Shown here: one piece after another, positions 10,426-38,013 of the stretch
Layout of the letters: every line of letters begins with the position of its first letter
Position numbering within the stretch: the stretch's first letter is position 1
Origin: Methanocella sp.
Lineage (GTDB): Archaea > Thermoproteota > Bathyarchaeia > Bathyarchaeales > Bathycorpusculaceae
Length of the DNA stretch: 43,574 nucleotides
Assembly: GCA_050261115.1 (NCBI GenBank)
Contig: JBLNCY010000055.1
Location: forward strand, 1 to 43,574
Reading direction: 5' to 3'
The notes under the pieces: generated by a model
What the model saw: the letters and a program-made list of their open reading frames with translations, nothing else
Told to the model about the DNA's origin: nothing
Databases searched by the model: none
Translations under genes and position numbers: made by a program

Positions 10426-11409
10426 ATGGCTGGAGAAATAATAGGCGACATACTTAGGCTAACAGTGCTAGGCGGGCTGGGCATCGCAGGCATAGTTGCG
10501 ATTCTGCTCTGGAAAAAGAACCTAGCAACCCGCGTAACGTTCCTGCGATTTGTCATTCAGGCAGTCGCAGCCGCCGCAATCTTTTACGTCTTCTCATACA
10601 CCATACCCATGCTCTACGCGTTGTTGTTTATCTTTATTGCTTCGATCTTTCTTGGCCGCTTCTACTGCGGCTGGCTCTGCCCATTAGGCTTAATCCTTGA
10701 TCTAGAAAGCCTTCTTAGGCGAGCACTCAAAGTAAGACACCGAATAATCCCCGACAAACTAAACATAGCACTCCACAAAGGGCGCTACCTAATCCTGCTT
10801 GTCTTCCTACTCATACCCATAGCATTCTGGATTTCCGACCCCCAAGAAATAATGGTTTCCCCCCTAATGGCACAGCTACTCGCGGGACATTACCGGGTGT
10901 ACAACTTAATTCTTGATCCCATGATTCCCTTCGTCGTTCCCTGGAGTGGCTCAGGAACAATCGCATTGCTTGACGTGAACTTTTCTTTCCCCTATGCCCA
11001 AAACATCATAACCTTCACAAATGAAACCATAGGCCCCTTCCTCGCAATCGCTTTTGTCGCCGTAGTCTTAGTTGGCGGGTTCCTTATCCGAAGGGTCTGG
11101 TGCCGCTTCTGCCCCACAGGCGTCTCAATAGCTGCCCTTAACCAATTCAAGGCTTTCAAGGCCCTTCCATTCTTATACGTTGATAAGGATGAGAAGAAAT
11201 GCACCAAATGTGGCGTCTGCAAACGTGTATGCACTGTGCAAGTTAACGAGGTGTATGAGCAGAAGGGTGGCAAAATCGGCACTTCACAATGTATGCTCTG
11301 CGCTAGGTGTGTTGAGATGTGCCCCTATGAGGATACGTTGAAACTGAAGTTTGGTAACAAGACCGTGTTTCGTTCAAGAAACTGGTTAGAACAACCGAGG
11401 ACTGAATGA
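10426..11409 (+). CDS. NapH/MauN-type membrane 4Fe-4S protein
   Basis: TM helices, GRFYCGWLCPLG and RVWCRFCPTG motifs, plus two C-terminal ferredoxin motifs CTKCGVCKRVC and CMLCARCVEMCP. Confidence 0.9.
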   Translation: MAGEIIGDILRLTVLGGLGIAGIVAILLWKKNLATRVTFLRFVIQAVAAAAIFYVFSYTIPMLYALLFIFIASIFLGRFYCGWLCPLGLILDLESLLRRALKVRHRIIPDKLNIALHKGRYLILLVFLLIPIAFWISDPQEIMVSPLMAQLLAGHYRVYNLILDPMIPFVVPWSGSGTIALLDVNFSFPYAQNIITFTNETIGPFLAIAFVAVVLVGGFLIRRVWCRFCPTGVSIAALNQFKAFKALPFLYVDKDEKKCTKCGVCKRVCTVQVNEVYEQKGGKIGTSQCMLCARCVEMCPYEDTLKLKFGNKTVFRSRNWLEQPRTE

Positions 11410-11419
11410 GGAGAATGAG

Positions 11420-12751
11420 ATGAAAAATCAAACCCCTGAAAGAAGATATTTGCCTGAAGTTTCCCCCAAGGAAATGGAAGAACTAAGAACCACTGTGAAA
11501 GCTGCCAGCCAAAGAATCATAGCCGACAACATCGAGCGCATGAAAAAAGCTGACCCCCACCGCCCAGAAGCTATGAAGTACTTTGATGACGTCGCTAACC
11601 TCTTTGGCAAACGTCAACAGGAAATCGAGGCAGAAAAAGCCAAGGGCAAAAAAGTCATCGGGTACATGTGCCTCTTCGCCCCCACCGAACTCATAACCGC
11701 CGCAGACGCCATACCCGTCCGAGTTAACTCTGGCTGGTATGATACCTCAAAACTCGGCGACCGCGTTGTACCAGTCGAGGTTTGTCCAGTTATCCGCTCC
11801 ACCATCGGAGCCAAAATGATTCAACTCTCACCGTTCCTTGAACAAAGCGACGCACTCATAAGTGTCTTAACCTGCGATGGCATGACTAAACTCAGCGAAA
11901 TCCTAAGCGACCAAAAAACCATCTGGGGCATGAACATACCACGCGTAAAAGACTCCGCGCAATCCCTAAGATTCTGGAACGACGAAATCAGAGCCATGAA
12001 GAAACAGATCGAAGAATTCACCGGCAACAAGATTGACCGCAAAAGCCTAAAAGAAGCCATAGAAATCAGCCACCGCGCAACCAGAGTCTTCCGCCGACTT
12101 CAAGAGCTCCGCAAGGGCAACCCCGTCATAATGGGCCGAGACGCTATGCTAGTTAACCAAGCCTACCAATGGGATGACAAGGTACGCTGGACAGAAAACG
12201 CTGAAAAACTCTGTAAAGAACTCGAAGAACGCGCGGAACGCAAGGATTGGGTTGTTAGCCCCGATACACCCCGCGTTATGGTTACAGGAACCCCAATGTT
12301 TTGGCCAGACAACTGGAAGCTACCCACACTGGTCGAAGAAGGCAACCCGCCAGGCATCATCGTGGCAGACGAACAATGCAGCGGCGAACGCATACTAAAC
12401 GACCCCATCGGAGTAGACGAATGGAGCATGGATGACATGCTGAACGCCATAAGCGAACGCTACCTCATGGCATCCACCTGCCCCTGCTTCACAAGCAAAG
12501 ACGGCAACGAAGACCGCATCAACTGGTTACTCACAAAAATCAAGGACTGGAACATCCAAGGCGTCATCTACTACGTCATCCGCGGATGCATGCTCTATGC
12601 CATGGAATACAGCCGCGTAAAAAAGACCTTAGACAAAATTAATGTCCCAGTTTACTATTTGGATACAGAATACACAAGGGAAGACGTCGGTCAAATGAAA
12701 ACCCGTGTAGAGGCTTTCCTTGAAATGCTAAATGCGAGAGTGGATTTCTAA
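11420..12751 (+). CDS. 2-hydroxyacyl-CoA dehydratase-family protein, double-cubane cluster protein (DCCP)-like
   Basis: Six Cys positions matching the DCCP pattern (GYMC, EVCPVIRS, TCDG, EQCSGER, TCPCF, GCMLY) and C-terminal DVGQMKTRVEAFLEM. Confidence 0.85.
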   Translation: MKNQTPERRYLPEVSPKEMEELRTTVKAASQRIIADNIERMKKADPHRPEAMKYFDDVANLFGKRQQEIEAEKAKGKKVIGYMCLFAPTELITAADAIPVRVNSGWYDTSKLGDRVVPVEVCPVIRSTIGAKMIQLSPFLEQSDALISVLTCDGMTKLSEILSDQKTIWGMNIPRVKDSAQSLRFWNDEIRAMKKQIEEFTGNKIDRKSLKEAIEISHRATRVFRRLQELRKGNPVIMGRDAMLVNQAYQWDDKVRWTENAEKLCKELEERAERKDWVVSPDTPRVMVTGTPMFWPDNWKLPTLVEEGNPPGIIVADEQCSGERILNDPIGVDEWSMDDMLNAISERYLMASTCPCFTSKDGNEDRINWLLTKIKDWNIQGVIYYVIRGCMLYAMEYSRVKKTLDKINVPVYYLDTEYTREDVGQMKTRVEAFLEMLNARVDF

Positions 12752-13534
12752 ATGATAACAGCCGGAATGGACCTAGGAACCCAACGAGTCAAAGCCGTAG
12801 TCCTAAAAGACGGCGTAGTCGTTGGCAGAGCACAGGCTTTCTCTGGGTTTGACCCCACAAAAGCCGCCGAAGAAGCCATAAACGAAGCCCTAAAACAGGC
12901 AAACCTAAAACTAAGCGACGTACAGCACTTCGCCGCAACCGGCTCAGCAATGAGCATGGCACCCTACGAACACACCACCGTCTCTATGATGAGTGCCGAC
13001 GCCAAAGCAGGCGTGCACCTTATCCCCACCGCCCGAACCATAATTGACGTGGGCGCGGAAGAAGCAAGAGCCGTAAAATGCGACGAACGAGGAGTAATGG
13101 CAGACTTTGTAGTCAACGAACGCTGCGCCGCCGGAGCAGGAGCATTCATCGAAGCCATGGCACGAGCGTTAGAAGTTAAACTCGAAGACATGGGACCACT
13201 CTCCCTGCAAGCCGAGCGCGCAAGCCCCATCAACGCTTCATGCGTCATCTTCGGCGAATCCGACGTCGTCTCTCTAATTCACCGCCAAGAATCCAAACCC
13301 GAAATCAGCCGAGCAGTATTTGACGCCATGGCCGACCGCGTATCCTCCATGATTCACCGCTTAGGCATAAACCCCGACGTCGTCCTAGTCGGCGGCGTCG
13401 CAAAAGACATCGGGTTTGTTACATCGCTAAACCGCAAACTGGGCTTGACAGTAAAAATCCCCGAATACCCAGAATACGCAGGGGCACTTGGTGCAGCATT
13501 AATCGCCACATCACGCGTTAAAGGAGGCGCCTAA
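12752..13534 (+). CDS. ASKHA ATP-dependent activator, BzdP-like subunit
   Basis: GMDLG, DVGAEEARAV, NERCAAGAGAFIEAMARALE, CVIFGESDVVSLIH and GALGAAL. Confidence 0.85.
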   Translation: MITAGMDLGTQRVKAVVLKDGVVVGRAQAFSGFDPTKAAEEAINEALKQANLKLSDVQHFAATGSAMSMAPYEHTTVSMMSADAKAGVHLIPTARTIIDVGAEEARAVKCDERGVMADFVVNERCAAGAGAFIEAMARALEVKLEDMGPLSLQAERASPINASCVIFGESDVVSLIHRQESKPEISRAVFDAMADRVSSMIHRLGINPDVVLVGGVAKDIGFVTSLNRKLGLTVKIPEYPEYAGALGAALIATSRVKGGA

Positions 13535-13535
13535 A

Positions 13536-14435
13536 TTGACAGAGCCCGTTAAAGAAGAATTCTGGCGCTGGCAAGAATACCACCGCATTGTCCCCGGCAA
13601 GAAATGGAGCAAAAACGACATCATCACAGCAGGCGTTGACGTGGGTTCAGTCGGCTCCAAAGCAGCCATCATGGTTAACGGCGAAGCCTACGCATGGGGC
13701 ATCACACGCACCGGCTCAAACAGCCCCGAATCCGCCAAAAAAGCCCTCGACTACGCCCTACAAGACACAGGCCTCAAAGTAAGCGACCTCAACTACATCG
13801 TCGGCACCGGCTATGGCCGAGTAAACGTCCCGATGGCCAACAAAGCCATCACCGAAATCGCCTGCCATGCCAAAGGCGCCAACTACATCTGGGGCCCCAA
13901 AGTCCGCACCGTCCTAGACGTCGGCGGACAAGACATTAAAGCCATCAAAATCGACGAAACCGGCCGCGTAGTCAGCTTCCTCATGAACGACAAATGCGCC
14001 GCAGGCACAGGACGAGGCATGGAAGTCTTCGCCGATCTGCTCCAAATCCCCATCGAAGAAATAGGCGACATCTCCCTAAAAGTGGAAAAAGAACCCGACC
14101 CCGTCAGCTGCACATGCGTAGCCTTCGCAAAGACCGAAGCTATGGGCTTACTCCGCAAAGGCTGGTCCAAAGAAAAAGTCCTAGCCGCATACACACGCGC
14201 TATGGCTGTACGCATGGCTAACCTCATCAACCGCGTCGGCTTAGAACCCGAACTCGTCGTCACAGGCGGCCAATCCAAAAATATCGGTATAGTCAGCCGC
14301 ATTGAAGTCATTTTGGGACAGAAAACATTGCCGATGCCTCGATGGCGCGAAGACGGCTTAGACCCCATGGTTGCAGGCGCCCTTGGTGCCGCGTCGTTGG
14401 CGAAGTCCCTATACGAGAAGGCACAGAAGACTTAG
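13536..14435 (+). CDS. ASKHA ATP-dependent activator, BzdQ-like subunit
   Basis: N-terminal EFWRW, GVDVGSVGSK, GTGYGR, TEIACHAKGA, DVGGQD and MNDKCAAGTGRGMEVFADLL. Confidence 0.87.
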   Translation: MTEPVKEEFWRWQEYHRIVPGKKWSKNDIITAGVDVGSVGSKAAIMVNGEAYAWGITRTGSNSPESAKKALDYALQDTGLKVSDLNYIVGTGYGRVNVPMANKAITEIACHAKGANYIWGPKVRTVLDVGGQDIKAIKIDETGRVVSFLMNDKCAAGTGRGMEVFADLLQIPIEEIGDISLKVEKEPDPVSCTCVAFAKTEAMGLLRKGWSKEKVLAAYTRAMAVRMANLINRVGLEPELVVTGGQSKNIGIVSRIEVILGQKTLPMPRWREDGLDPMVAGALGAASLAKSLYEKAQKT

Positions 14436-15952: not shown

Positions 15953-16783
15953 GTGACATATCTATTGGTGGATAGAACGAAAAAACAAGTAGTAGCCACA
16001 CTCTTAATTCTCACCACAACCATCCTCTTAACAGCAACACCCAACACAACAGCAACCAACCAATGGCCAATAACCGTAACAAACCCCACCCAACAACAAA
16101 CCACACTAACCTACGACCAACTAACCACACTACCCGCCACCAGCGTATACGCAGAACTTACCTGCTACGGCTCGCAAGTAATAAGCGGACTATGGACAGG
16201 AGCAAAAATATCAGACATACTCACCCTCGCTAACGCAGACATATCCGGTGGTTCGGTATCCTTCTCAGCCCAAGACGGTTACAACATAGTTATACCCATG
16301 GAAACCGCAATGCAACCAGAAGTAATCCTAGCATACAAACTAGAATCTGATACGTTACAAGAAACATACCGACTAGTAATACCAGAAGCAAACGGTAACG
16401 TCTGGATAGCCATGGTAACATCAATAACCGTAATAGATGCCGGTGCCCCCGCTGTTCCCGAAAAATCAGCAAACCTCTTCGACGCCACCAAACTATCCGA
16501 AAACAACAACCAAAATACCTCTCCGCAGCAAACGCCAACCAAGACACCCCAGCCGGCTACACCCAAACCCACACAAGACACGACAGTCATTCAGCCAACT
16601 CCTACTCCAACAAACCAGGCCACGCCATCCCCCGCCACAACGATCCCCCAGAAGGATGAGCCCCAGAACACCATTACTTTAGAACCTGCTTACTTAGCTG
16701 TTTTTGCAGTGATAGCGGTGGCCCTCTCAGTGGGGCTGATAGGGGTGGCTAAACAGAAACAAGGCAAAAGTAGCGTCCACTAA
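15953..16783 (+). CDS. Extracellular molybdopterin-dependent oxidoreductase-domain (sulfite-oxidase/MsrP-like) protein, membrane anchored
   Basis: Signal peptide; LTCYG...WTGAKISDIL...FSAQDGY...ILAY...YRLVIP...GNVW; PT-rich linker; C-terminal TM helix. Confidence 0.8.
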   Translation: MTYLLVDRTKKQVVATLLILTTTILLTATPNTTATNQWPITVTNPTQQQTTLTYDQLTTLPATSVYAELTCYGSQVISGLWTGAKISDILTLANADISGGSVSFSAQDGYNIVIPMETAMQPEVILAYKLESDTLQETYRLVIPEANGNVWIAMVTSITVIDAGAPAVPEKSANLFDATKLSENNNQNTSPQQTPTKTPQPATPKPTQDTTVIQPTPTPTNQATPSPATTIPQKDEPQNTITLEPAYLAVFAVIAVALSVGLIGVAKQKQGKSSVH

Positions 16784-30599: not shown

Positions 30600-31156
30600 G
30601 AATCACTAAGCTGGTTACCCATAGCTTCACCCTTAAATCTACCTCTAAATCCAACGGTTGATTTGCACTCTGCAGGGCTAACGTGATATTGGCCCTTCTT
30701 ATGCCTATGACGCTATGGGCAAAAGGCGATTGGAATAGCCAAACAGTATCTATCGGTAAAAAACACCTGCAGTAACAATCGACCTTGATTCATTCCCCCC
30801 ACAAAAACCCACTCTGTTTTGCTTCGGATTAATTCAAAGAACTTTGCCAAGTTAGCGGTGTGGGCTCATTTAGTGGGTCTTATTCCATGACGTCTGAGGG
30901 GACTGGGCGGTTCTGGCTAATGCAGCTGAGACTAGGCTGTGGATAGTTCGCAGTATATGTTACGGTTAAGAAGATGCCGCTTTATCATAGGTACGCTATA
31001 CCTACATTACTGCTGTTGATTGTTTTGTTGTTTGTGGGTGACGCGGTTTACTTTTTGAATGGTAAAAAGTGTTGTTCTGACCTAAGCCGATTAGTATATA
31101 TTTCAATTATGCAGGTATTAGTAATATTAACTGTTAATATCAGAGGCGCACAAGTT

Positions 31157-32188
31157 ATGGAGAGAAAAATCATGTCGCTGGGCAAATCATCACTAGTAAT
31201 CTCCCTACCCAAAGAGTGGATGCAGCTAAACGACCTAAAAAAAGGCGACACCATCTCCTTCAACATCCAAAAAGACCGCTCACTAGTCATCTACCCGAGC
31301 AGCCTAAAACGATCTGAAGAAAAAACAATCACCCTAAACATCCAATCCAACGAAGAAGAAATCCTAATCACACAAAAAATCTTAGGCGCATACCTAAACG
31401 GGTACACAGCCATCACACTCGCCTCCGAGGGAATCTTTACTGTACCCCAAACCCGAGCCATCCGCAACATGGCCGGCCGCCTCTACATGCGAGTCATGGA
31501 AGCCGACGCCAAATGCGTCAACATCCAAAGCCTGATGGATGAATCCAAAGCCTCACTCGAGCAAGCCATCCAACGCATGCACCTCATCTCACGCTCCATG
31601 TGCGAAGGCGCCTTCACCGCCCTCAAAAACAATGACGTCCCCCTAGCAAAATCCTCATACTCCCTCGACGATGACGTCGACCACTTCGCATTCTTAATCA
31701 TGCGCATTCTACGTAATGCCGCACAGAACCCCCACCTCGCCAACGAACTCCACATAGACCCCATAGACTGCATGGATCACCAAACCCTAATCACCCGAAT
31801 GGAACACGCCTCTGACTACGCAGCCGAGATCACCAAACATGTCATTATGCTAAACGGAGCCAAACAAACTATCCCTGACGACGTCTTATTATTAATGGTG
31901 AAAGCAGGCACCGAAGTAACCGAACTCTATGTCAAAGCCGTGGAGGCATTCTTTTCTAAAGACGTCAACGCCGCCGTCAACATAATGAAGCACCGCCAAA
32001 AACTCGAAAAACTCGATGTCGAAATCACATCCAAATCATTCATCGGACCGCAAAAAAGTGCAGAACTCGTCTGCGGCATATGCAGCATACGAGATAACAT
32101 AAAACGCATCAGCCACTGCACCTTTAGCATCGCAGAAATCGCAGTTAACCGAGCCTTTAAAGTACCAACACCAGAAATTACAAAATAG
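31157..32188 (+). CDS. phoU: Phosphate uptake regulator (AbrB-type DNA-binding domain + PhoU repeats)
   Basis: RKIMSLGKSSLVISLPKEW...LKKGD, GAYLNGY, DDDVDHF and MEHASDYA; true start is ATG 31157 after GAGG. Confidence 0.88.
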   Translation: MERKIMSLGKSSLVISLPKEWMQLNDLKKGDTISFNIQKDRSLVIYPSSLKRSEEKTITLNIQSNEEEILITQKILGAYLNGYTAITLASEGIFTVPQTRAIRNMAGRLYMRVMEADAKCVNIQSLMDESKASLEQAIQRMHLISRSMCEGAFTALKNNDVPLAKSSYSLDDDVDHFAFLIMRILRNAAQNPHLANELHIDPIDCMDHQTLITRMEHASDYAAEITKHVIMLNGAKQTIPDDVLLLMVKAGTEVTELYVKAVEAFFSKDVNAAVNIMKHRQKLEKLDVEITSKSFIGPQKSAELVCGICSIRDNIKRISHCTFSIAEIAVNRAFKVPTPEITK

Positions 32189-32211: not shown

Positions 32212-33633
32212 CTAAGCTTTGGGGCTTTTGTTTGAGAGATACTCGTGAATGCTTTTCGCCGCAGTTTTGCCTGTACCCATGGCGCTGATGACTGTTGCTT
32301 CGCCGGTTGCGATGTCGCCGCCGACGTAGACGCCTTCAATGGTTGTTTTGAATGCTTGGTCGCTGGCGATTATGCCGCCTTTATTGGTTTTTAATCCGGG
32401 GGTTGTGCTCTGTATGATTGGGTTAGGTGTCCTGCCGATTGCAACGATTACGGTGTCAACGTCAAATGTGACTTCTGAGCCTTCGATGGGTGCGACTCGG
32501 TGTTTGCCGGAGTCGTCGGCGTCGCATAGCCGCATAGATATGGTCACCATTGACGTGACGTTGCCCTTCTCATCCCCGATGAATTTGATGGGTGTGCTTA
32601 GGTACTTGAAGAATATGCCTTCTTCTTCAGCGTTAGAGATTTCTTCTTCGCGCGCGGGCATTTCGTTTCGTGTGCGCCGATAGAATATGGTGACGTTTTC
32701 GGCGCCTAAGCGTAGTGCGCATCTTGCGGAGTCGAGGGCTACGTTGCCGCCTCCGATGACTGCCACGCGTTTTCCTACGCGGATAGGTGTTTTGGACTGG
32801 GGGAAGTTGAAGGATTTCATTAGGTTTACGCGTATGAGGAACTCGTTTGCGGAGTAGATGCCGTTGAGGTTCTCTCCAGGGACTTCGAGGAATTTGGGTA
32901 ACCCGGCGCCGGTGCCGATGAATACTGCCTGGTAGCCTTTGGCGAATAACTCGTCGATGGTGAGTGTACGGCCGATAAGGAAGTCAGGCTTGAATTCAAC
33001 GCCAAGCTTTTTGATGTAGTCGATTTCTGCTTGGACTATGTATTTTGGCAGTCTGAATTCAGGGATGCCATAAACTAGCACTCCACCGCCTTTGTGAAGC
33101 GCCTCAAAGATAGTCACGGGGTAGCCTAGTTTTGCAAGATCTGCCGCGACGGTTAAACCAGCGGGACCCGCGCCTACGACTGCAACTTTCTTGCCGTTAC
33201 ATGGAGGAACTTTGGGTACGTCAATACCACGTTCACGCTCTAGGTCGGCTACAAACCGTTCAAGTCGACCTATGGAGACAGGGTCGCCTTTTTTGCCGAC
33301 GATGCAGTTTTTTTGGCATTGCTCTTCCTGTGGGCATACGCGTCCGCAGATGGCGGGTAGGCTGTTGCGTTCTTTGATTGTTCTGATTGCGCCTGCATAA
33401 TCGTTTTGTTTGATTTGTTTGATAAAGGTGGGGATGGGTACGTTAACTGGGCAACCCTCTACACATTTTGGCGAGGCACAGTTTAAGCATCGACAGGCCT
33501 CAGCTAGGGCTTGCTCTTCAGTGTAGCCTAGTACTACTTCTTTGAAGTTTTTAGTTCGGTTAAAGGCGTCTTGTTTTGGAACTTCAACCGCAAAGAAGCG
33601 GTTGTTGGTTGCTGGGTTTAGTGTCCGTGACAT
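32212..33633 (-). CDS. nfnB: NADH-dependent reduced ferredoxin:NADP+ oxidoreductase large subunit (NfnB/SudA, GltD-like)
   Basis: RCLNC...CVEGCPV, CGRVCPQEEQC, GAGPAG, YGIPEFRLPK, GGGNVA and GGDIATG. Confidence 0.88.
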   Translation of the reverse strand: MSRTLNPATNNRFFAVEVPKQDAFNRTKNFKEVVLGYTEEQALAEACRCLNCASPKCVEGCPVNVPIPTFIKQIKQNDYAGAIRTIKERNSLPAICGRVCPQEEQCQKNCIVGKKGDPVSIGRLERFVADLERERGIDVPKVPPCNGKKVAVVGAGPAGLTVAADLAKLGYPVTIFEALHKGGGVLVYGIPEFRLPKYIVQAEIDYIKKLGVEFKPDFLIGRTLTIDELFAKGYQAVFIGTGAGLPKFLEVPGENLNGIYSANEFLIRVNLMKSFNFPQSKTPIRVGKRVAVIGGGNVALDSARCALRLGAENVTIFYRRTRNEMPAREEEISNAEEEGIFFKYLSTPIKFIGDEKGNVTSMVTISMRLCDADDSGKHRVAPIEGSEVTFDVDTVIVAIGRTPNPIIQSTTPGLKTNKGGIIASDQAFKTTIEGVYVGGDIATGEATVISAMGTGKTAAKSIHEYLSNKSPKA

Positions 33634-34520
33634 TGACAGTTACTCTCTCCTAGTGGTTTTTGGATCGATAGCGCGAGTTTTCTTTCCTCGGTGCAGTAGC
33701 TTTTGAGCCGCTGCATGAGCTCTTTAAAGTTAACTTTATGTGCATCAAATTCTGGGCCGTCCACGCAGGCAAATTGCGTTTTGCCGTCGATTGTGACACG
33801 GCATGCACCGCACATTCCCATGCCGTCCACCATGATGGGATTTAGGTTGGCTATGGTTTTGATGCCAAAGGGACGTGTTAAGTCTGCAATCACCATCATC
33901 ATTATAGGGGGCCCAATTGCGAAGACTATATCGACTTTTGTGTCTTTAGCTAAGAGAGATTTCAATATGTCACTTACTAGGCCTTTTTGCCCTTTTGTGC
34001 CGTCGTCTGATGTAAAGTAAACTTCGTCGGAGACGGCTTTCATCTCGTCCTCTAAGATGAATAAATCGGCGGTTCTTGCACCCATGATAGAGATGACTTT
34101 ATTTCCGGCTTCTTTGAGGGCTTTTGCCACTGGATATGCGACCGCTGTTCCTAGACCGCCGCAGACTACGACGGCGGTGCCGAAGTTTTTAATGTCACTG
34201 GGGTTTCCCAATGGGCCTGCTACATGCATGACTTTGTCGTCAACGTGTAGGGCGCCCATTTCTATTGTTGAGTAGCCGACTTCTTGGAAAATGTGTGAAA
34301 TTGTCCCTTTTTCTTTATCCCAAGAGGATAGTGTTAGGGGGATTCGTTCGCTGTCTGAGCGGATTTTGAAAATGACAAATTGCCCAGGGTGTGCTTTTGC
34401 CGCAATGTCTGGGGCGTATATGGTTATTTTTTTAGTGACAGGGTTGAGGACTTTTTTTTCGACGACTCTGTTGAGGTTGTCTGGGTTATTTTGATATTTT
34501 GCGGTCTCCGTGCTAATCAC
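33618..34520 (-). CDS. nfnA: Nfn small subunit (NfnA/SudB, PyrK-like FAD/2Fe-2S)
   Basis: PGQFVI, ERIPLT, GPLG and NPIMVDGMGMCGACRV...FACVDGPEFD (Asp-ligated 2Fe-2S pattern); directly upstream of the large subunit. Confidence 0.9.
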   Translation of the reverse strand: MISTETAKYQNNPDNLNRVVEKKVLNPVTKKITIYAPDIAAKAHPGQFVIFKIRSDSERIPLTLSSWDKEKGTISHIFQEVGYSTIEMGALHVDDKVMHVAGPLGNPSDIKNFGTAVVVCGGLGTAVAYPVAKALKEAGNKVISIMGARTADLFILEDEMKAVSDEVYFTSDDGTKGQKGLVSDILKSLLAKDTKVDIVFAIGPPIMMMVIADLTRPFGIKTIANLNPIMVDGMGMCGACRVTIDGKTQFACVDGPEFDAHKVNFKELMQRLKSYCTEERKLALSIQKPLGESNCQCHGH

Positions 34521-34686
34521 GCCTACCCGATTGTATTAATCGTATATACAATATATATGCTATAAAAGGCTTGCTGGCTACAAATGACTACCACAAGCCA
34601 TAAACAAGCCGATAAATTTTCGTTCTAACTTGCCAAAAACAGTAAGCTTAAGTCCATTAACGCCCAAATTAGAGCCAGGAACAGAC

Positions 34687-35013
34687 ATGTGTCCACTCAG
34701 CTATAAGTTCAAGCTTTGGATGGTAAACGAAAAAAACGAAGCAGTATTCGGCGACGGCTTAGCTAAATTGCTTGAAAAAATCGAGCAACACCACTCCGTC
34801 TTAGACGCCGCAAAAGAACTCGACATGTCCTACCGATATGCACTACATCGAATATCGTTAGCTGAGGAACGGCTAGGTCAATCTTTGGTTACGCGTGTCC
34901 GAGGGGGAGCGAAAGGCGGCGGATCCTCGGAAGTTACGGCGTTTGGCAAGGACTTGGTTTTACAGTTTAGGAGAAAACAGGCAGCTTTGAGTTCTTCAAT
35001 TAATAGTTTATAG
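34687..35013 (+). CDS. modE: ModE N-terminal-like winged-helix regulator (no molybdate-binding domain)
   Basis: FG.G...LL..I....S...AAKELDMSYR.A....E..LG..LV...RGGAKGGG; alternative TTG start at 34630. Confidence 0.82.
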   Translation: MCPLSYKFKLWMVNEKNEAVFGDGLAKLLEKIEQHHSVLDAAKELDMSYRYALHRISLAEERLGQSLVTRVRGGAKGGGSSEVTAFGKDLVLQFRRKQAALSSSINSL

Positions 35014-35077
35014 GGCACTGCTTTGGAGTAACGTTTTAATTTCCCGATGTTACCCATTTATCACATCGGAGCTTTTC

Positions 35078-35647
35078 ATGACAACTCTGTCAAACCAAAA
35101 AACCAGCAGCAACCTAAGAATAGCCACCACAGACCTAGTCCTAACAGCAATGTTTGCAAGCTTAGGTTTGGCAACAAAAGAGCTACTCTACCCCCTCATC
35201 GGCCCACTAATAAGCACCGCCAACATCCCCACAGGCGGCGTCTTAGGTGGATTATACATGATGTGGATAGTAATCCCCTACGGCTTAATCGGCAAACCCG
35301 GCGTCGCCACACTAGTAGCACTCATCCAAGCATGCATAAGCCTAATTCTACCATACGGTAACTTTGGCATACTCGCGTTTGTGATTTATCTTGGGCCCGG
35401 CTTAGTCATGGATGCCGTTTTCCTGCTCATGCGACATAAAGCTTGCTGCTTAGGATGTTGTATGATAGCGGCTGCCGTCGCAAACACGGTTGGGACGTTG
35501 CTTGTCGGCGGTTTAATCCTGATGCTACCTGCGGTTATTCTTGCATTTTTAGGCGTTGTAGCGGCAATTAGCGGATGCATGGGTGGATTCATTGCGAACA
35601 TGCTCCTAAAAAGGGTTAAGAATGGATTCTGGAGAAGGAAAACGTGA
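35078..35647 (+). CDS. ECF transporter S-component-like membrane protein
   Basis: 189 aa, about 6 TM helices, DLVLTAMFASLG, GLIGKPGVATL and PGLVMD. Confidence 0.75.
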   Translation: MTTLSNQKTSSNLRIATTDLVLTAMFASLGLATKELLYPLIGPLISTANIPTGGVLGGLYMMWIVIPYGLIGKPGVATLVALIQACISLILPYGNFGILAFVIYLGPGLVMDAVFLLMRHKACCLGCCMIAAAVANTVGTLLVGGLILMLPAVILAFLGVVAAISGCMGGFIANMLLKRVKNGFWRRKT

Positions 35648-36144
35648 AAAAATTAACTAAAATAGCGTTAGTTGCGCTTGTTTTATTAGTTATCGCAGTT
35701 ATTCCGCTTTACTATTACACACGCCCCGACGCCTCGCAGCCAACGGGAATGCTGCAAATCAAAGGTAACGTAGCCAACCCAGCTAACTTGAGCTACACAG
35801 AGATCACTGAGTATCCGTCAATCACCTTGCAAGTAACCGTTAAAGGAAACCAGGGAGGCAACGGCGACTTCACCTACACAGGCGTCACCCTAAAAACGCT
35901 CCTAGAACAAGCAGAAATCAACAGCAACGCCACATCTATCTTTATCCAAGCATCTGACGGCTATGGAACCACCCTAACCCTAGAGGAAGCAAACAAAGAC
36001 AGCGCCTTTATAGCCTACAAGAAAGACGGCGCAGCTATGACCCCACTTACTGAGGGCGGGGAAGGTCCATTCCGCCTGATTATCGCTGACGACGAATTTG
36101 CCCAGCGGTGGATTCGTGGAGTAGCAGCAATAGTGGTCAGCTAA
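35644..36144 (+). CDS. Membrane-anchored molybdopterin-oxidoreductase-domain protein lacking Cys
   Basis: N-terminal TM; IKGNV.NP..LSY, YTGVTLKTLLE, ASDGY, IAY..DG, GPFRLII and RWIRGV; GTGA overlap with the S-component gene. Confidence 0.8.
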   Translation: MKKLTKIALVALVLLVIAVIPLYYYTRPDASQPTGMLQIKGNVANPANLSYTEITEYPSITLQVTVKGNQGGNGDFTYTGVTLKTLLEQAEINSNATSIFIQASDGYGTTLTLEEANKDSAFIAYKKDGAAMTPLTEGGEGPFRLIIADDEFAQRWIRGVAAIVVS

Positions 36145-36659
36145 ACCACAAGGTCGAGCGCTTTTGCCTCAACTATTTCGGCTAACGCTTTTACCTCTTG
36201 GGTGTTATTTAGAAGGGGGATTGCTGCGTCAGAAAATTTTTCTCTCTCCGCGTCTGATTCTGTAATTAATCCAGAAAGGGCTACAACGGAGCCATCCAAG
36301 TAGCTTTCCGCTTCTTCTGCAGTTTGTGCTGTGGCGATTTTTGGTAGCCACTTTTCTGACTCAAACCCCTCCAAAAGCACATAATCGAGGCCTTTGAGGT
36401 AGGGAAGGATTTCTTGTATGCTTAGCCTCTTGGGGATGAAAAGGACGGTTTCGTTTCGCGGAACGGCGACGACGAATTCTGCGCCGGCTTTTCGGTAGCG
36501 GTCGGTTTCTTTGTTGGGGGTGTCTAGGGTGGGTATGCGTACCATCTCTTTTATGGTGCCTACACGGTAGCCTCGGCTAGTTAATTCGGTGATTAGGCGT
36601 TCGATGGTGGCGGTTTTGCCGGTGTGTTTGGCTCCGACGACTGCGATGAGTTTAGGCAT
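36141..36659 (-). CDS. mobB: Molybdopterin-guanine dinucleotide biosynthesis protein B
   Basis: VVGAKHTGKT, GYRVGTIK, DTP.KET.R...AGA and DYVLLEGF. Confidence 0.88.
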   Translation of the reverse strand: MPKLIAVVGAKHTGKTATIERLITELTSRGYRVGTIKEMVRIPTLDTPNKETDRYRKAGAEFVVAVPRNETVLFIPKRLSIQEILPYLKGLDYVLLEGFESEKWLPKIATAQTAEEAESYLDGSVVALSGLITESDAEREKFSDAAIPLLNNTQEVKALAEIVEAKALDLVV

Positions 36660-36735
36660 AAATGCACCTTGAGCGTTTAATTATTAGGTAAGTTGGTTGT
36701 AAGAAAAAGGCTTTTGGTCAGTAGATAGAGGGCAG

Positions 36736-38013
36736 TTATTTCTTGGGTTTTACTTCGCTACTCTGCTTTAGCAGCACAATACTATCCGCGGGTAAATCGC
36801 GCTCAACCATGAGATTTGCGCCAACCCACGTATTAGCGCCTATCTTTACGCCAGGCATAAATGATGACTTGATGCCAGTCTTTACGTTATCGCCCAGTAT
36901 TGCGCCAAGCTTGCGTCTGCCGGTATCGACGACTTTGCCTTTTATCGTCATCTTCACGGGGCCATCGTCAAAGCGCAGGTTCGCGGTTATGGTTCCGGCG
37001 CCGAGGTTGCATTTCTCGCCCAAAACGCTGTCACCGACATATGAGAGGTGCCCCACATGGGTGCCATCCATGATTATACTGTTTTTGACTTCACATCCAT
37101 TACCCACACGGGTCTTTTTGCCCAAGCTTGTTCCAGGGCGGATATAGCAGTTGGGACCTACATCTGCCTCTTCATCAATAAATGCGGGCCCTTCGATGTA
37201 GGCGCCTGAGCGTATCCGCGCTGACTCCGCAACTGTAACAGGGCCAATCAAATGTGCACCGTCCTCAACTTTGCCCAGCACGCGATGCTCCATACGCTTT
37301 AGGGCCCAAACGTTTGCATCCAGCAAGTCCCAAGGTCGACCCACATCAAACCAGTCGCCTTTCGAAAGCTCTGCCGCGATGACGGTTTTTCCTTCCTCGG
37401 CAAGCATCGTTAAAGCATCCGTTAGCTCCCATTCGCCCCGAGCGGACGCCTTAAGCTGCGCTATCTTCCCAAAAACATCCCGAGAGAAAACATAGACGCC
37501 AGCGTTAGCCAAGTTAGAGGGCGCTTGTCCAGACGCGGGCTTTTCGACAATACGCTTAACATGCATTTGGCTGTCTTGCTCGATTATGCCGTAGTTTTCC
37601 GGTCGGTCAACCTGGACAACGCCGACAACTGCGGCGGTTTTGCCGTTTCTGAACTTGGAGAGCACCGTTTTTACTGCGTCTTGTCCGAAGAGTAAGTCTC
37701 CATATATTAGTACGAAGTCGTCGTCTAGGTATGGTTCTGCTACGCCAGCTGCGTTGCCGGTGCCTAAAATCTTGGGCTGTTCCACATAAGTCACTTTCAA
37801 GCCCAGCTGTGAGCCGTCGCTAAAGTAGCTGTGGATAGCATCTGCCATGTAATGGGTGACAATCACCACTTCAGTAATCCCTGCCGTTTTTACTGCTTCT
37901 AGGCAATACTGAAGTATGGGTTTGCCGCCGACTTTTAGGAGGTGCTTGGGGCGTGTTGCAGTTAAGGGAAGTAATCTTTCTCCCGCGCCCGCCGCCAGTA
38001 ATACTGCTTTCAT
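36736..38013 (-). CDS. glmU: Bifunctional sugar-1-phosphate nucleotidylyltransferase/acetyltransferase
   Basis: LAAGAGERLLPLTATRPK, RGEWELTD, hexapeptide repeats, HLSYVGDS and ANLRFD. Confidence 0.92.
   Translation of the reverse strand: MKAVLLAAGAGERLLPLTATRPKHLLKVGGKPILQYCLEAVKTAGITEVVIVTHYMADAIHSYFSDGSQLGLKVTYVEQPKILGTGNAAGVAEPYLDDDFVLIYGDLLFGQDAVKTVLSKFRNGKTAAVVGVVQVDRPENYGIIEQDSQMHVKRIVEKPASGQAPSNLANAGVYVFSRDVFGKIAQLKASARGEWELTDALTMLAEEGKTVIAAELSKGDWFDVGRPWDLLDANVWALKRMEHRVLGKVEDGAHLIGPVTVAESARIRSGAYIEGPAFIDEEADVGPNCYIRPGTSLGKKTRVGNGCEVKNSIIMDGTHVGHLSYVGDSVLGEKCNLGAGTITANLRFDDGPVKMTIKGKVVDTGRRKLGAILGDNVKTGIKSSFMPGVKIGANTWVGANLMVERDLPADSIVLLKQSSEVKPKK

Follow-up and report, generated by a model that had tools for sequence, protein, structure and literature searches.

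PruR, known from Agrobacterium, Vibrio and Klebsiella (structures 7KOS/7KOU, 7KOM, 7KP2 and 7RKB), is a small exported protein that consists of the sulfite oxidase (SUOX) fold only. It has been described as a periplasmic, non-catalytic pterin binder that has lost the molybdenum-ligating cysteine, carries a truncated hairpin and holds its pterin between Y104 and W160 with the participation of N102 (PMC11194511). The energy-coupling factor (ECF) transporters provide a second point of comparison, in particular YkoE (5EDL), which belongs to the YkoEDC thiamine/hydroxymethylpyrimidine transporter. CbiMN and NikMN/NikKL are metal ECF systems with accessory outward-facing components. In Listeria, an ECF-dependent export of flavin adenine dinucleotide (FAD) serves extracytosolic flavinylation (PMC9973259). 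Here we describe a block of four genes, at positions 34687-36659 of a 43,574-nucleotide stretch of DNA from a genome of the Bathyarchaeia (contig JBLNCY010000055.1 of assembly GCA_050261115.1, hereafter the window), in which such parts stand together: genes for an ECF S-component and a cysteine-free SUOX-fold protein are flanked by genes for a helix-turn-helix (HTH) regulator resembling ModE and for a MobB-type protein. With a probability of roughly 0.6, we propose that this block is a regulated, ECF-type salvage importer of a molybdopterin-type cofactor, be it molybdopterin (MPT), its molybdenum or tungsten form or a close derivative. The metal ECF systems and the Listeria FAD system are precedents for accessory outward components or for cofactor traffic to extracytosolic proteins; they differ from the window block in their S families (CbiM/NikM and RibU) and accessory folds, and they have neither a SUOX-fold receptor nor a MobB gene.

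Pfam and TIGRFAM scans of the open reading frames (ORFs) established the four genes in the order and at the positions that an earlier reading of the bare sequence had claimed (hereafter the original prediction). The assignment of the organism to the Bathyarchaeia agrees with the remaining genes of the window and with the names under which relatives are recorded. The regulator, a ModE-N-like winged-HTH protein of 108 aa, is encoded at 34687..35013 on the plus strand; the mechanical call of its ORF begins at a TTG codon (34630), whereas its homologues support the ATG at 34687 as the start. It is followed on the same strand by the S-component gene (35078..35647, 189 aa) and by the gene for the membrane-anchored SUOX-fold protein (35644..36144, 166 aa). 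The TGA stop of the former and the GTG start of the latter (35644) overlap in the sequence GTGA, which agrees with the translational coupling stated in the original prediction. The mobB gene (36141..36659) lies on the minus strand and converges with the SUOX-fold gene, the two 3' ends overlapping by 4 nt. Its product scored 93.5 bits against TIGR00176 (cut-off 76.2) and E 4.3e-24 against PF03205, and the G-x4-G-K-T loop of a P-loop protein is present in the translation. An Rfam scan of 34300-36800 at E values up to 1 returned no RNA family and hence no riboswitch for the molybdenum cofactor (Moco). Each of the four genes is matched in part by metatranscriptome contigs (95-100% identity) from four libraries and three studies, stretches without a match being uninformative, and two of these contigs span the junction between the regulator and S-component genes (X15, 34730-35221; X16, 34941-35265). 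These contigs are a hint of expression only, as they give neither strand nor level, could derive from DNA, and a contig covering two genes does not equal a single transcript.

The SUOX-fold protein matches Oxidored_molyb (PF00174) with an E value of 6.6e-15 and 55.5 bits. Its N-terminus consists of the positively charged MKKLTK and a single hydrophobic stretch, its sequence shows no twin-arginine motif, and the domain is predicted to face outwards. There is no cysteine anywhere in its 166 residues. Both BLASTP and hmmalign place its VKGNQGG opposite the LTCYG of a paralogue encoded at 15953 of the window, so that Lys-Gly-Asn-Gln stands where the paralogue has its cysteine; the claim of a cysteine-free domain, made from the same pair of motifs, was reproduced in full. 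An alignment of 25 family sequences likewise contains no conserved cysteine and has serine or glycine at the aligned ligand position. With no cysteine at all and Ser/Gly at the ligand position, the domain does not have the catalytic hallmark of SUOX enzymes. The protein keeps the Moco-domain fold and the G-x-G-P-x-R-L motif of SorA, SoxC, YedY/MsrP and the plant and animal sulfite oxidases, but it lacks their molybdenum-ligating cysteine, their dimerisation domain and their haem domain. Further SUOX-like genes were observed in the same genome. The paralogue (15953-16783, plus strand) is an Oxidored_molyb protein of 276 aa that retains cysteine at the molybdenum-ligand position (LTCYG) and ends in a Pro/Thr-rich tail; a third SUOX-like ORF is located on contig C16 (10707-11099).

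Structural modelling pointed to PruR as a close match. The alignment-based AlphaFold2 (AF2) model of the domain had a mean confidence (pLDDT) of 87.2, and its comparison with the Moco domains of the SUOX family (SorA, SoxC and YedY) gave VIA Z scores of 14-19 overall, with 18.7-18.9 for SorA and SoxC and a Foldseek E value of 2e-9 for SorA. The scores of PruR lay within one Z unit of those of SorA and SoxC: 18.0 for 7kou, at a root-mean-square deviation of 1.7 A over 125 residues, and 17.9 for the neopterin-bound 7rkb. Foldseek TM-target values against PruR were 0.75-0.76, and the PruR chains were covered nearly end to end. The pterin-binding fold named in the original prediction was thereby recovered, as the modelled domain matches in fold and size a proven non-catalytic pterin binder. 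D105, Y107, R144 and W156 are invariant in the 25-sequence alignment, and sequence alignment sets N102-D-Y104 of PruR against D105-G-Y107 of the window family; an aspartate in place of N102 also occurs in some PruR groups (PMC13259868). W156 stands at the same distance from the C-terminus as W160 of PruR (model residues 34-166 against PruR residues 31-168), which is a match of distance and not a residue-level superposition. By sequence, the N/D-x-Y contact would be common to the two proteins, and the C-terminal tryptophan probably is as well. The hairpin that bears the cysteine in SUOX enzymes is about 15 residues shorter here, judged by a profile alignment to SorA, and is short in PruR too.

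The same positions were traced through 34 short SUOX proteins from distant loci (described below). Residue 105 is Asp or Asn in 34/34, Y107 is kept in 31/34 and W156 in 25/34, and 33/34 lack cysteine at the ligand position, the one protein with a cysteine in this region (1/34) carrying it off that position. There are also differences from PruR. Identity is only about 25%, and the window protein is archaeal, anchored in the membrane and surrounded by MobB and other Moco genes. PruR is a periplasmic receptor paired in Proteobacteria with the GGDEF-EAL protein DcpA, whereas the window protein is paired with an ECF S-component; and where PruR has a P-W motif at the cysteine position, the window protein has Q70-G71 and its family Ser/Gly. 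We propose, on the strength of the model and the alignments, that the SUOX-fold domain is a non-catalytic receptor for a pterin or pterin cofactor, which would resemble PruR in working principle while having neither its P-W motif nor its signalling partner.

The predicted membrane partner of this domain was assigned to PF09819 with an E value of 9.4e-16 and 58.5 bits (cut-off 25.2). Its nearest solved relative is YkoE (5edl), found at E 1.5e-3 with the single sequence and at 1.3e-4 with a family profile. Hydropathy and a count of positive residues predict six transmembrane (TM) helices with both termini inside, the segments predicted to be cytoplasmic having 11 Lys/Arg against 1 in the outer ones. 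YkoE shares with the window protein its Pfam family, its size and the six-helix layout predicted here, and relatives of the window protein are found in S-EcfA-EcfA'-EcfT operons. The match to YkoE is nevertheless a distant one, and YkoE differs in having no extracytoplasmic partner domain and in its thiamine rather than molybdenum/tungsten cofactor context. A further difference concerns the motif H-K-A-C-C-x-x-C-C (residues 120-128), which is invariant in the 31-sequence family, lies by prediction where TM5 meets the cytoplasm and is absent from YkoE at the aligned site. The motif occurs in only 14/103 representatives of the wider family, some fusions of the S-component to SUOX or pyrophosphatase domains among them, and is therefore not essential to the family; in the proteins that have it, it could hold a dithiolene or a metal at the point of release.

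An ECF S-component requires an energising module, and the original prediction had supposed that a shared EcfAA'T module would be encoded elsewhere. The window genome does contain a stand-alone ecfA-ecfA'-ecfT set, on contigs C8 and C11, and none of these genes adjoins the S-component gene. Its ecfT is divided between contig ends, with profile positions 108-213 at the end of C11 and 2-110 at the start of C8, which indicates that the two contigs abut and that the three genes form one operon. The genome also has two CbiMNQO systems. Prediction of a complex between the S-component and the SUOX-fold protein gave a score of 0.43 against 0.00 for the best of 3 controls; the runs shared at least 92% of contacts, and the pLDDT of the partners was at least 78. 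In our benchmark the mark was reached by 58/80 solved complexes and by 2/110 mismatched pairs, with 7 of the 80 solved complexes and both passing mismatches at scores of 0.60 or lower. The predicted interface accordingly gives weak support to the idea that the two proteins may form a complex.

A scan of one genome per species yielded 35 related loci in Bathyarchaeia (L001-L035), in which gene presence was determined by tblastn; the database clusters of the S-component and SUOX-like (SUOXL) families were of similar number (192 and 219). The S-component and SUOXL genes occur together in 34/35 of these loci, and the HTH regulator and MobB in 31/35 each. The mobB gene is mostly convergent, as in the window, and in five loci follows SUOXL directly in the same direction. 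Clustering and Pfam assignment of the neighbours across the 35 loci identified a MobA-like gene in 15, MoeA in 15, FdhD in 12 and a second mobB in 12-15, and found no conserved redox-partner genes beside the SUOX-fold gene. Many loci contain one to three SUOX-like genes, one example being a 308-aa anchored protein with two cysteine-free domains.

The window genome (G000; 94.85% complete, 2.21% contamination) appears to be unable to make the cofactor that its enzymes would use. Profile searches returned no match to MoaC, to the C-terminal domain of MoaA, to MoaE or to the dimethyl sulfoxide (DMSO) reductase family, and no stand-alone MoaB was present, the sole stand-alone PF00994 protein besides the domain in MoeA being CinA-like. 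Retained are three matches to the aldehyde ferredoxin oxidoreductase (AOR) type (AFOR_N) and one MoeA. There is no PF13531 protein and the sole PF12849 match is a LysR regulator, so that no binding protein of the ModA, WtpA or TupA type was found in this genome. The genes moaC-moaB-moaA and moaE are present in a congeneric carrier of the module (G269, identical with G187), and tblastn found no counterpart of any of them in the window genome. The genes that flank moaE in this carrier adjoin each other on contig C31 of the window genome with a gap of 230 bp, which marks the absence of moaE as a real deletion and not a gap in the assembly.

Absence of moaA and moaC from carriers had been anticipated in the original prediction, and it was observed for a part of them. 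Besides the window genome, which is without moaA, moaB, moaC and moaE, MoaA, MoaC and MoaE are all missing from further carriers to give 11/35 in total (completeness is unreported for G251-G284). AOR (AFOR_N) is nonetheless present in 35/35 carriers and MoeA_N in 34/35. Binding proteins of PF13531 were found in 0/11 triple-loss carriers versus 17/24 of the others, and MoeA is single-copy in the triple-loss genomes, whereas most genomes that keep MoaA, MoaC and MoaE have three MoeA_N matches, including a tandem pair. In a carrier in which MoaA, MoaC and MoaE are all still detected (G279:C1:116129-116546), the MoaC gene is in two pieces with 2 in-frame TGA stops, which looks like a pathway caught in decay.

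A second census covered 251 genomes sampled evenly from the class, in which a carrier was defined by an orthologue of at least 153 bits, the next match having 75 bits. The sample contains 10/251 carriers, and MoaC was not found in 6/10 of them versus 44/241 of the other genomes. All 6 MoaC-less carriers are also without MoaE, and every genome of the sample found to be without both is a carrier. The 6 come from two families, f1 and f5, and one of them is a single-contig genome. On a module tree, that is, a gene tree of concatenated S-component and SUOXL sequences with 32 rows (without L035, and without L017, L028 and L029, which did not pass the ORF and hit filters), the triple loss requires at least 2 changes. 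Five MoaC-less, AOR-bearing genomes of the same order that have no S-component were considered as counter-examples; all five keep MoaE, and their auxotrophy is consequently not established. A general need for pterins was likewise considered as the driver and rejected as a specific signal, as most carriers have neither MptA nor FolE but the same holds for non-carriers.

Distant relatives offered a view of the module outside the Bathyarchaeia. Among 1.84 billion representative proteins, a profile search recovered 273 relatives of the S-component. Of ten long ones that were scanned, Pfam assigned four as single chains of S-component and Oxidored_molyb and three as chains of S-component and a type I phosphodiesterase/nucleotide pyrophosphatase, and a fifth S-SUOX fusion was recognised by motif. 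The S-SUOX fusions have an extra helix, which would place the SUOX domain outside the cell. Fused or longer forms had been absent from a word search of 8000 candidates, which is weak evidence, and the hidden Markov model search did find them. The nearest S-component clusters in the ESM Atlas are mostly from Bacteria, commonly Bacillota, which we take as a lead only.

A metagenome scan (80 loci, 566 confirmed relatives) was reduced to 62 non-redundant loci, 54 of them with a called S-component ORF; many of the contigs are short, and the partner counts are therefore lower bounds. The same-strand run around the S-component gene includes a SUOX-domain gene in at least 33/54 loci, EcfA in at least 27/54 and EcfT in at least 20/54. 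MobB directly follows EcfT in at least 9/54 loci, or 9/20 of those with EcfT, and is itself followed by an APH/RIO-like kinase in at least 6/54. The run further contains a nucleotide pyrophosphatase in at least 14/54 loci, an ApbE flavin transferase in at least 5/54 and a purple-acid-type phosphatase in at least 3/54, and the S-component is fused to a SUOX domain in at least 3/54 and to a nucleotide pyrophosphatase domain in at least 3/54. The fullest operon reads S-(pyrophosphatase)-SUOX-EcfA-EcfA'-EcfT-MobB-kinase, as in L119 and L131, and in L091 an AOR gene lies upstream. The MobB of L119 is closer to the MobB of the window module than to the second MobB of the window genome. Homologues of the kinase, the pyrophosphatase, ApbE and DUF364 were found neither in the window genome nor in L001-L035 (tblastn, E 1e-3). 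Considering these loci together with the Bathyarchaeia, the conserved S/SUOX pairing expected by the original prediction holds in both groups and in natural single-chain fusions, and the expected molybdenum/tungsten neighbourhood is found in both as well.

Two unusual arrangements were seen among the distant loci. One is a 1244-aa surface protein encoded beside the S-component gene (L096, 6704-10438; also in L093), which has S-layer homology repeats, HID domains like those of the haem receptor Shr and a SUOX-like domain, and which by its domain content looks like a surface capture receptor. The other is an EcfT fused to a purple-acid-phosphatase/metallophosphoesterase domain (L057, 8340-10262).

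The regulator of the window block resembles the N-terminal domain of ModE, as the original prediction had it. It matched TIGR00637 (ModE_repress) with an E value of 1.4e-15 and 57.1 bits, which is under the cut-off of 98.5 for that family, and PF00126 with 28.8 bits, which is slightly over the cut-off. The protein ends after the HTH and has no Mop/TOBE effector domain, nor any further Pfam family at E 0.1 or below. Like ModE with ModABC, the regulator is associated with a palindromic site adjoining a transport operon; it differs in lacking the Mop/TOBE molybdate-sensing domain, and the window genome has no ModA-type binding protein. The palindrome, a presumed operator, is a 24-nt box at 35045..35068 that ends 10 nt before the start of the S-component gene. 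Its family consensus is CGATRTTAC-N6-GTAAYATCG, and a regular-expression search located it directly upstream of the S-component gene in the window and in 31/33 related loci having an S-component ORF. Directly 5' of it, at 35034..35042 on the plus strand, lies a TATA-like A/T box (TTTTAATTT; TTTATTT in relatives), which holds its place beside the palindrome across loci and is the probable promoter of the S-component gene.

Only 2 sites in the 2.15-Mb window genome have at least 15/18 matches to the palindrome. One is the site before the S-component gene, and the second lies 27 nt before a gene whose 394-aa product is membrane-anchored and has two SUOX-like domains in tandem (contig C10, 139394-140628); the sequence of the C10 box was also seen in L001 and L002. 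In related loci, further copies precede other SUOX-like genes and metallophosphoesterase genes. In three loci of Bathyarchaeia (L010, L019 and L033), a metallophosphoesterase gene is situated between SUOX-like genes that bear the operator. The sites appear to define a small regulon, presumably governed by the adjacent HTH protein.

The proposed salvage of a molybdopterin-type cofactor would proceed as follows. On the outer face of the membrane, the cysteine-free SUOX-fold domain would catch the cofactor by its pterin part, leaving the metal unligated, and pass the ligand to the adjacent S-component, which the stand-alone EcfA-EcfA'-EcfT module would power in the inward direction. In the cytoplasm, MobB and MoeA would take over the cofactor for insertion into AOR-type enzymes. 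The ModE-N-like regulator would control the S/SUOX operon and the second SUOX-like receptor gene through their common palindromic operator, and would repress this regulon once supply suffices. In the bacterial operons, the pyrophosphatase might trim the ligand outside and the kinase re-phosphorylate it inside, which could make dinucleotide forms usable; this is speculation, although it fits the logic of vitamin salvage.

A number of observations weigh against the salvage proposal. The AF2 model of the S-component is poor (mean pLDDT 62.6; predicted TM-score 0.42), so that the assignment of its fold relies on sequence profiles and on operon context. The convergent orientation of mobB in the window means that it is not co-transcribed with the S/SUOX pair, the two closest loci (L001 and L002) have no adjacent mobB, and to our knowledge the biochemical role of MobB is unsettled. 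Regarding the receptor, R144 is invariant in the Bathyarchaeia family but kept in only 7/34 distant SUOXL proteins, and the authors who described PruR considered such a short pocket too small for whole Moco (PMC11194511; PMC13259868). The pattern of gene loss is also imperfect. MoaA, MoaC and MoaE are kept in 20/35 carriers, with one or two missing in 4/35, and auxotrophs are thus not the only genomes that have the module. In addition to the unreported completeness of some carriers, 10/11 triple-loss genomes group in a single supported clade of the module tree; such kin are not independent, and the loss counts are accordingly read as a pattern and not as a statistic. Finally, the auxotrophs keep MoeA while MoaB and the anion binding proteins are missing, which leaves the imported chemical form ambiguous.

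The alternative that best survives these data is uptake of a pterin other than Moco, such as a folate or methanopterin precursor or a compound of the neopterin or monapterin type, or else PruR-like sensing with a membrane partner. The nearest non-enzymatic relatives of the receptor, the PruR proteins, are binders of small pterins and their hairpin is equally shortened. Moreover, 28/35 carriers are without both MptA/FolE2 (present in 7/35) and FolE (0/35). MptA is scarce throughout the class, however (36/251), and its presence is unlinked to the module, being found in 3/10 carriers versus 33/241 non-carriers; the loss that does track the module is that of MoaA, MoaC and MoaE. The conserved neighbours are MobB, MobA-like, MoeA and FdhD genes rather than genes of folate or methanopterin synthesis. 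As for sensing, there is no sensor partner of the GGDEF/EAL or kinase kind, and the receptor does not have the PW motif of PruR. We thus regard small-pterin uptake or sensing as unlikely.

A second alternative holds that the block is a novel importer of tungstate, molybdate or a thiometalate, with the SUOX-fold domain and the cysteine-rich S-component binding the metal species. Such an importer would account for the ModE-like regulator and MobB in the block, for the absence of PF13531 proteins from the window genome (its PF12849 match being a LysR regulator) and from all 11 triple-loss genomes, and for the four invariant cysteines and the histidine of the S-component. It would leave the source of the AOR pterin unexplained in genomes without MoaA, MoaC and MoaE. 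Furthermore, the positions conserved across distant receptors (D/N105, Y107 and W156) are pterin-contact positions of the SUOX fold, the cysteine motif lies at the predicted cytoplasmic face and is restricted to a minority of family representatives, the pyrophosphatase and kinase partners of the relatives have no role in anion uptake, and YkoE, the sole solved member of PF09819, binds an organic vitamin. Anion import is in our judgement improbable. The last alternative, in which the ECF module would export a cofactor to load Sec-exported SUOX-fold proteins by analogy with FAD export in Listeria, has in its favour that ECF precedent (PMC9973259), a receptor that without a twin-arginine motif would fold outside the cell and ApbE genes in 5/54 distant loci, but we consider it very improbable, given that 11/35 carriers without MPT synthesis have nothing to export yet keep the module, that a domain without the molybdenum-ligating cysteine is unlikely to be a molybdenum enzyme and that no redox-partner genes are conserved nearby in Bathyarchaeia.

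Several other gene groups were observed around the module. Upstream of it in the window are an NfnAB-like pair, consisting of a GltD-type flavoprotein and a DHODB-type Fe-S subunit, and an AbrB-PhoU regulator (32212-34520, minus strand; 30974-32188, plus strand); the same genes are upstream in 13-14/35 related loci, which we read as lineage synteny and not as part of the module. A 2-hydroxyacyl-CoA dehydratase-like cluster at 10426-14435 (plus strand) comprises a Fer4 membrane protein, an HGD-D component and two BcrAD/BadFG activator ATPases. In 8-15/35 loci the module is flanked by genes for SelD-like AIRS, HGD-D dehydratase-like, DsrE/TusA-like and 'selenium metabolism-associated' LysR proteins (for example L009, 7176-11289; also L001, L002, L007 and L011), a group through which the cofactor locus may be tied to the handling of selenium or sulfur.

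We know of no uptake system for Moco or molybdopterin in bacteria or archaea. The full-text literature that we searched described no ECF or other transporter for either compound (subscription journals were largely outside this search, and a prior description is possible). A survey of Moco-riboswitch regulons, in the parts covered here, lists transporters for molybdenum and tungsten anions and has no category for cofactor uptake (PMC3766115), and a 2026 review states that how pterins cross membranes is unknown (PMC13259868). Each part of the present system, be it the ECF S-component, the PruR-like SUOX fold, the ModE-like HTH or MobB, is of a known kind; what is new is the way in which they are combined and the substrate that this implies, and the module may be the first cofactor uptake route seen in microbes. 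A wider picture, which we offer tentatively and at somewhat less than even odds, is that of the first prokaryotic family of molybdenum/tungsten cofactor transporters: an ECF system spanning both domains of life, in which outward-facing, cysteine-free SUOX-fold receptors would catch cofactor from the environment, helped in Bacillota-type operons by extracellular nucleotide pyrophosphatases or phosphatases that cut back its dinucleotide forms, the S-component would carry it inwards and MobB would accept it in the cytoplasm, with a kinase re-phosphorylating it in the bacterial operons. In this picture, at least two separate lineages of Bathyarchaeia would have dropped moaA, moaB, moaC and moaE and would live as molybdopterin auxotrophs on cofactor that their neighbours release.

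If the salvage proposal is true, it would extend the PruR-type cysteine-free SUOX fold from signalling to transport and would give MobB a concrete job. The SUOX-like proteins encoded at 15953 and on contig C16 would also need imported cofactor in a genome without MPT synthesis. The proposal would further provide a testable nutrient requirement for cultivation and a tool to deliver Moco into cells. For the organisms themselves, it would explain how tungsten-pterin AOR enzymes are kept without biosynthesis of their cofactor in abundant archaea of sediments, peat and digesters, and Moco would become a traded 'public good' in the manner of B12 or thiamine.

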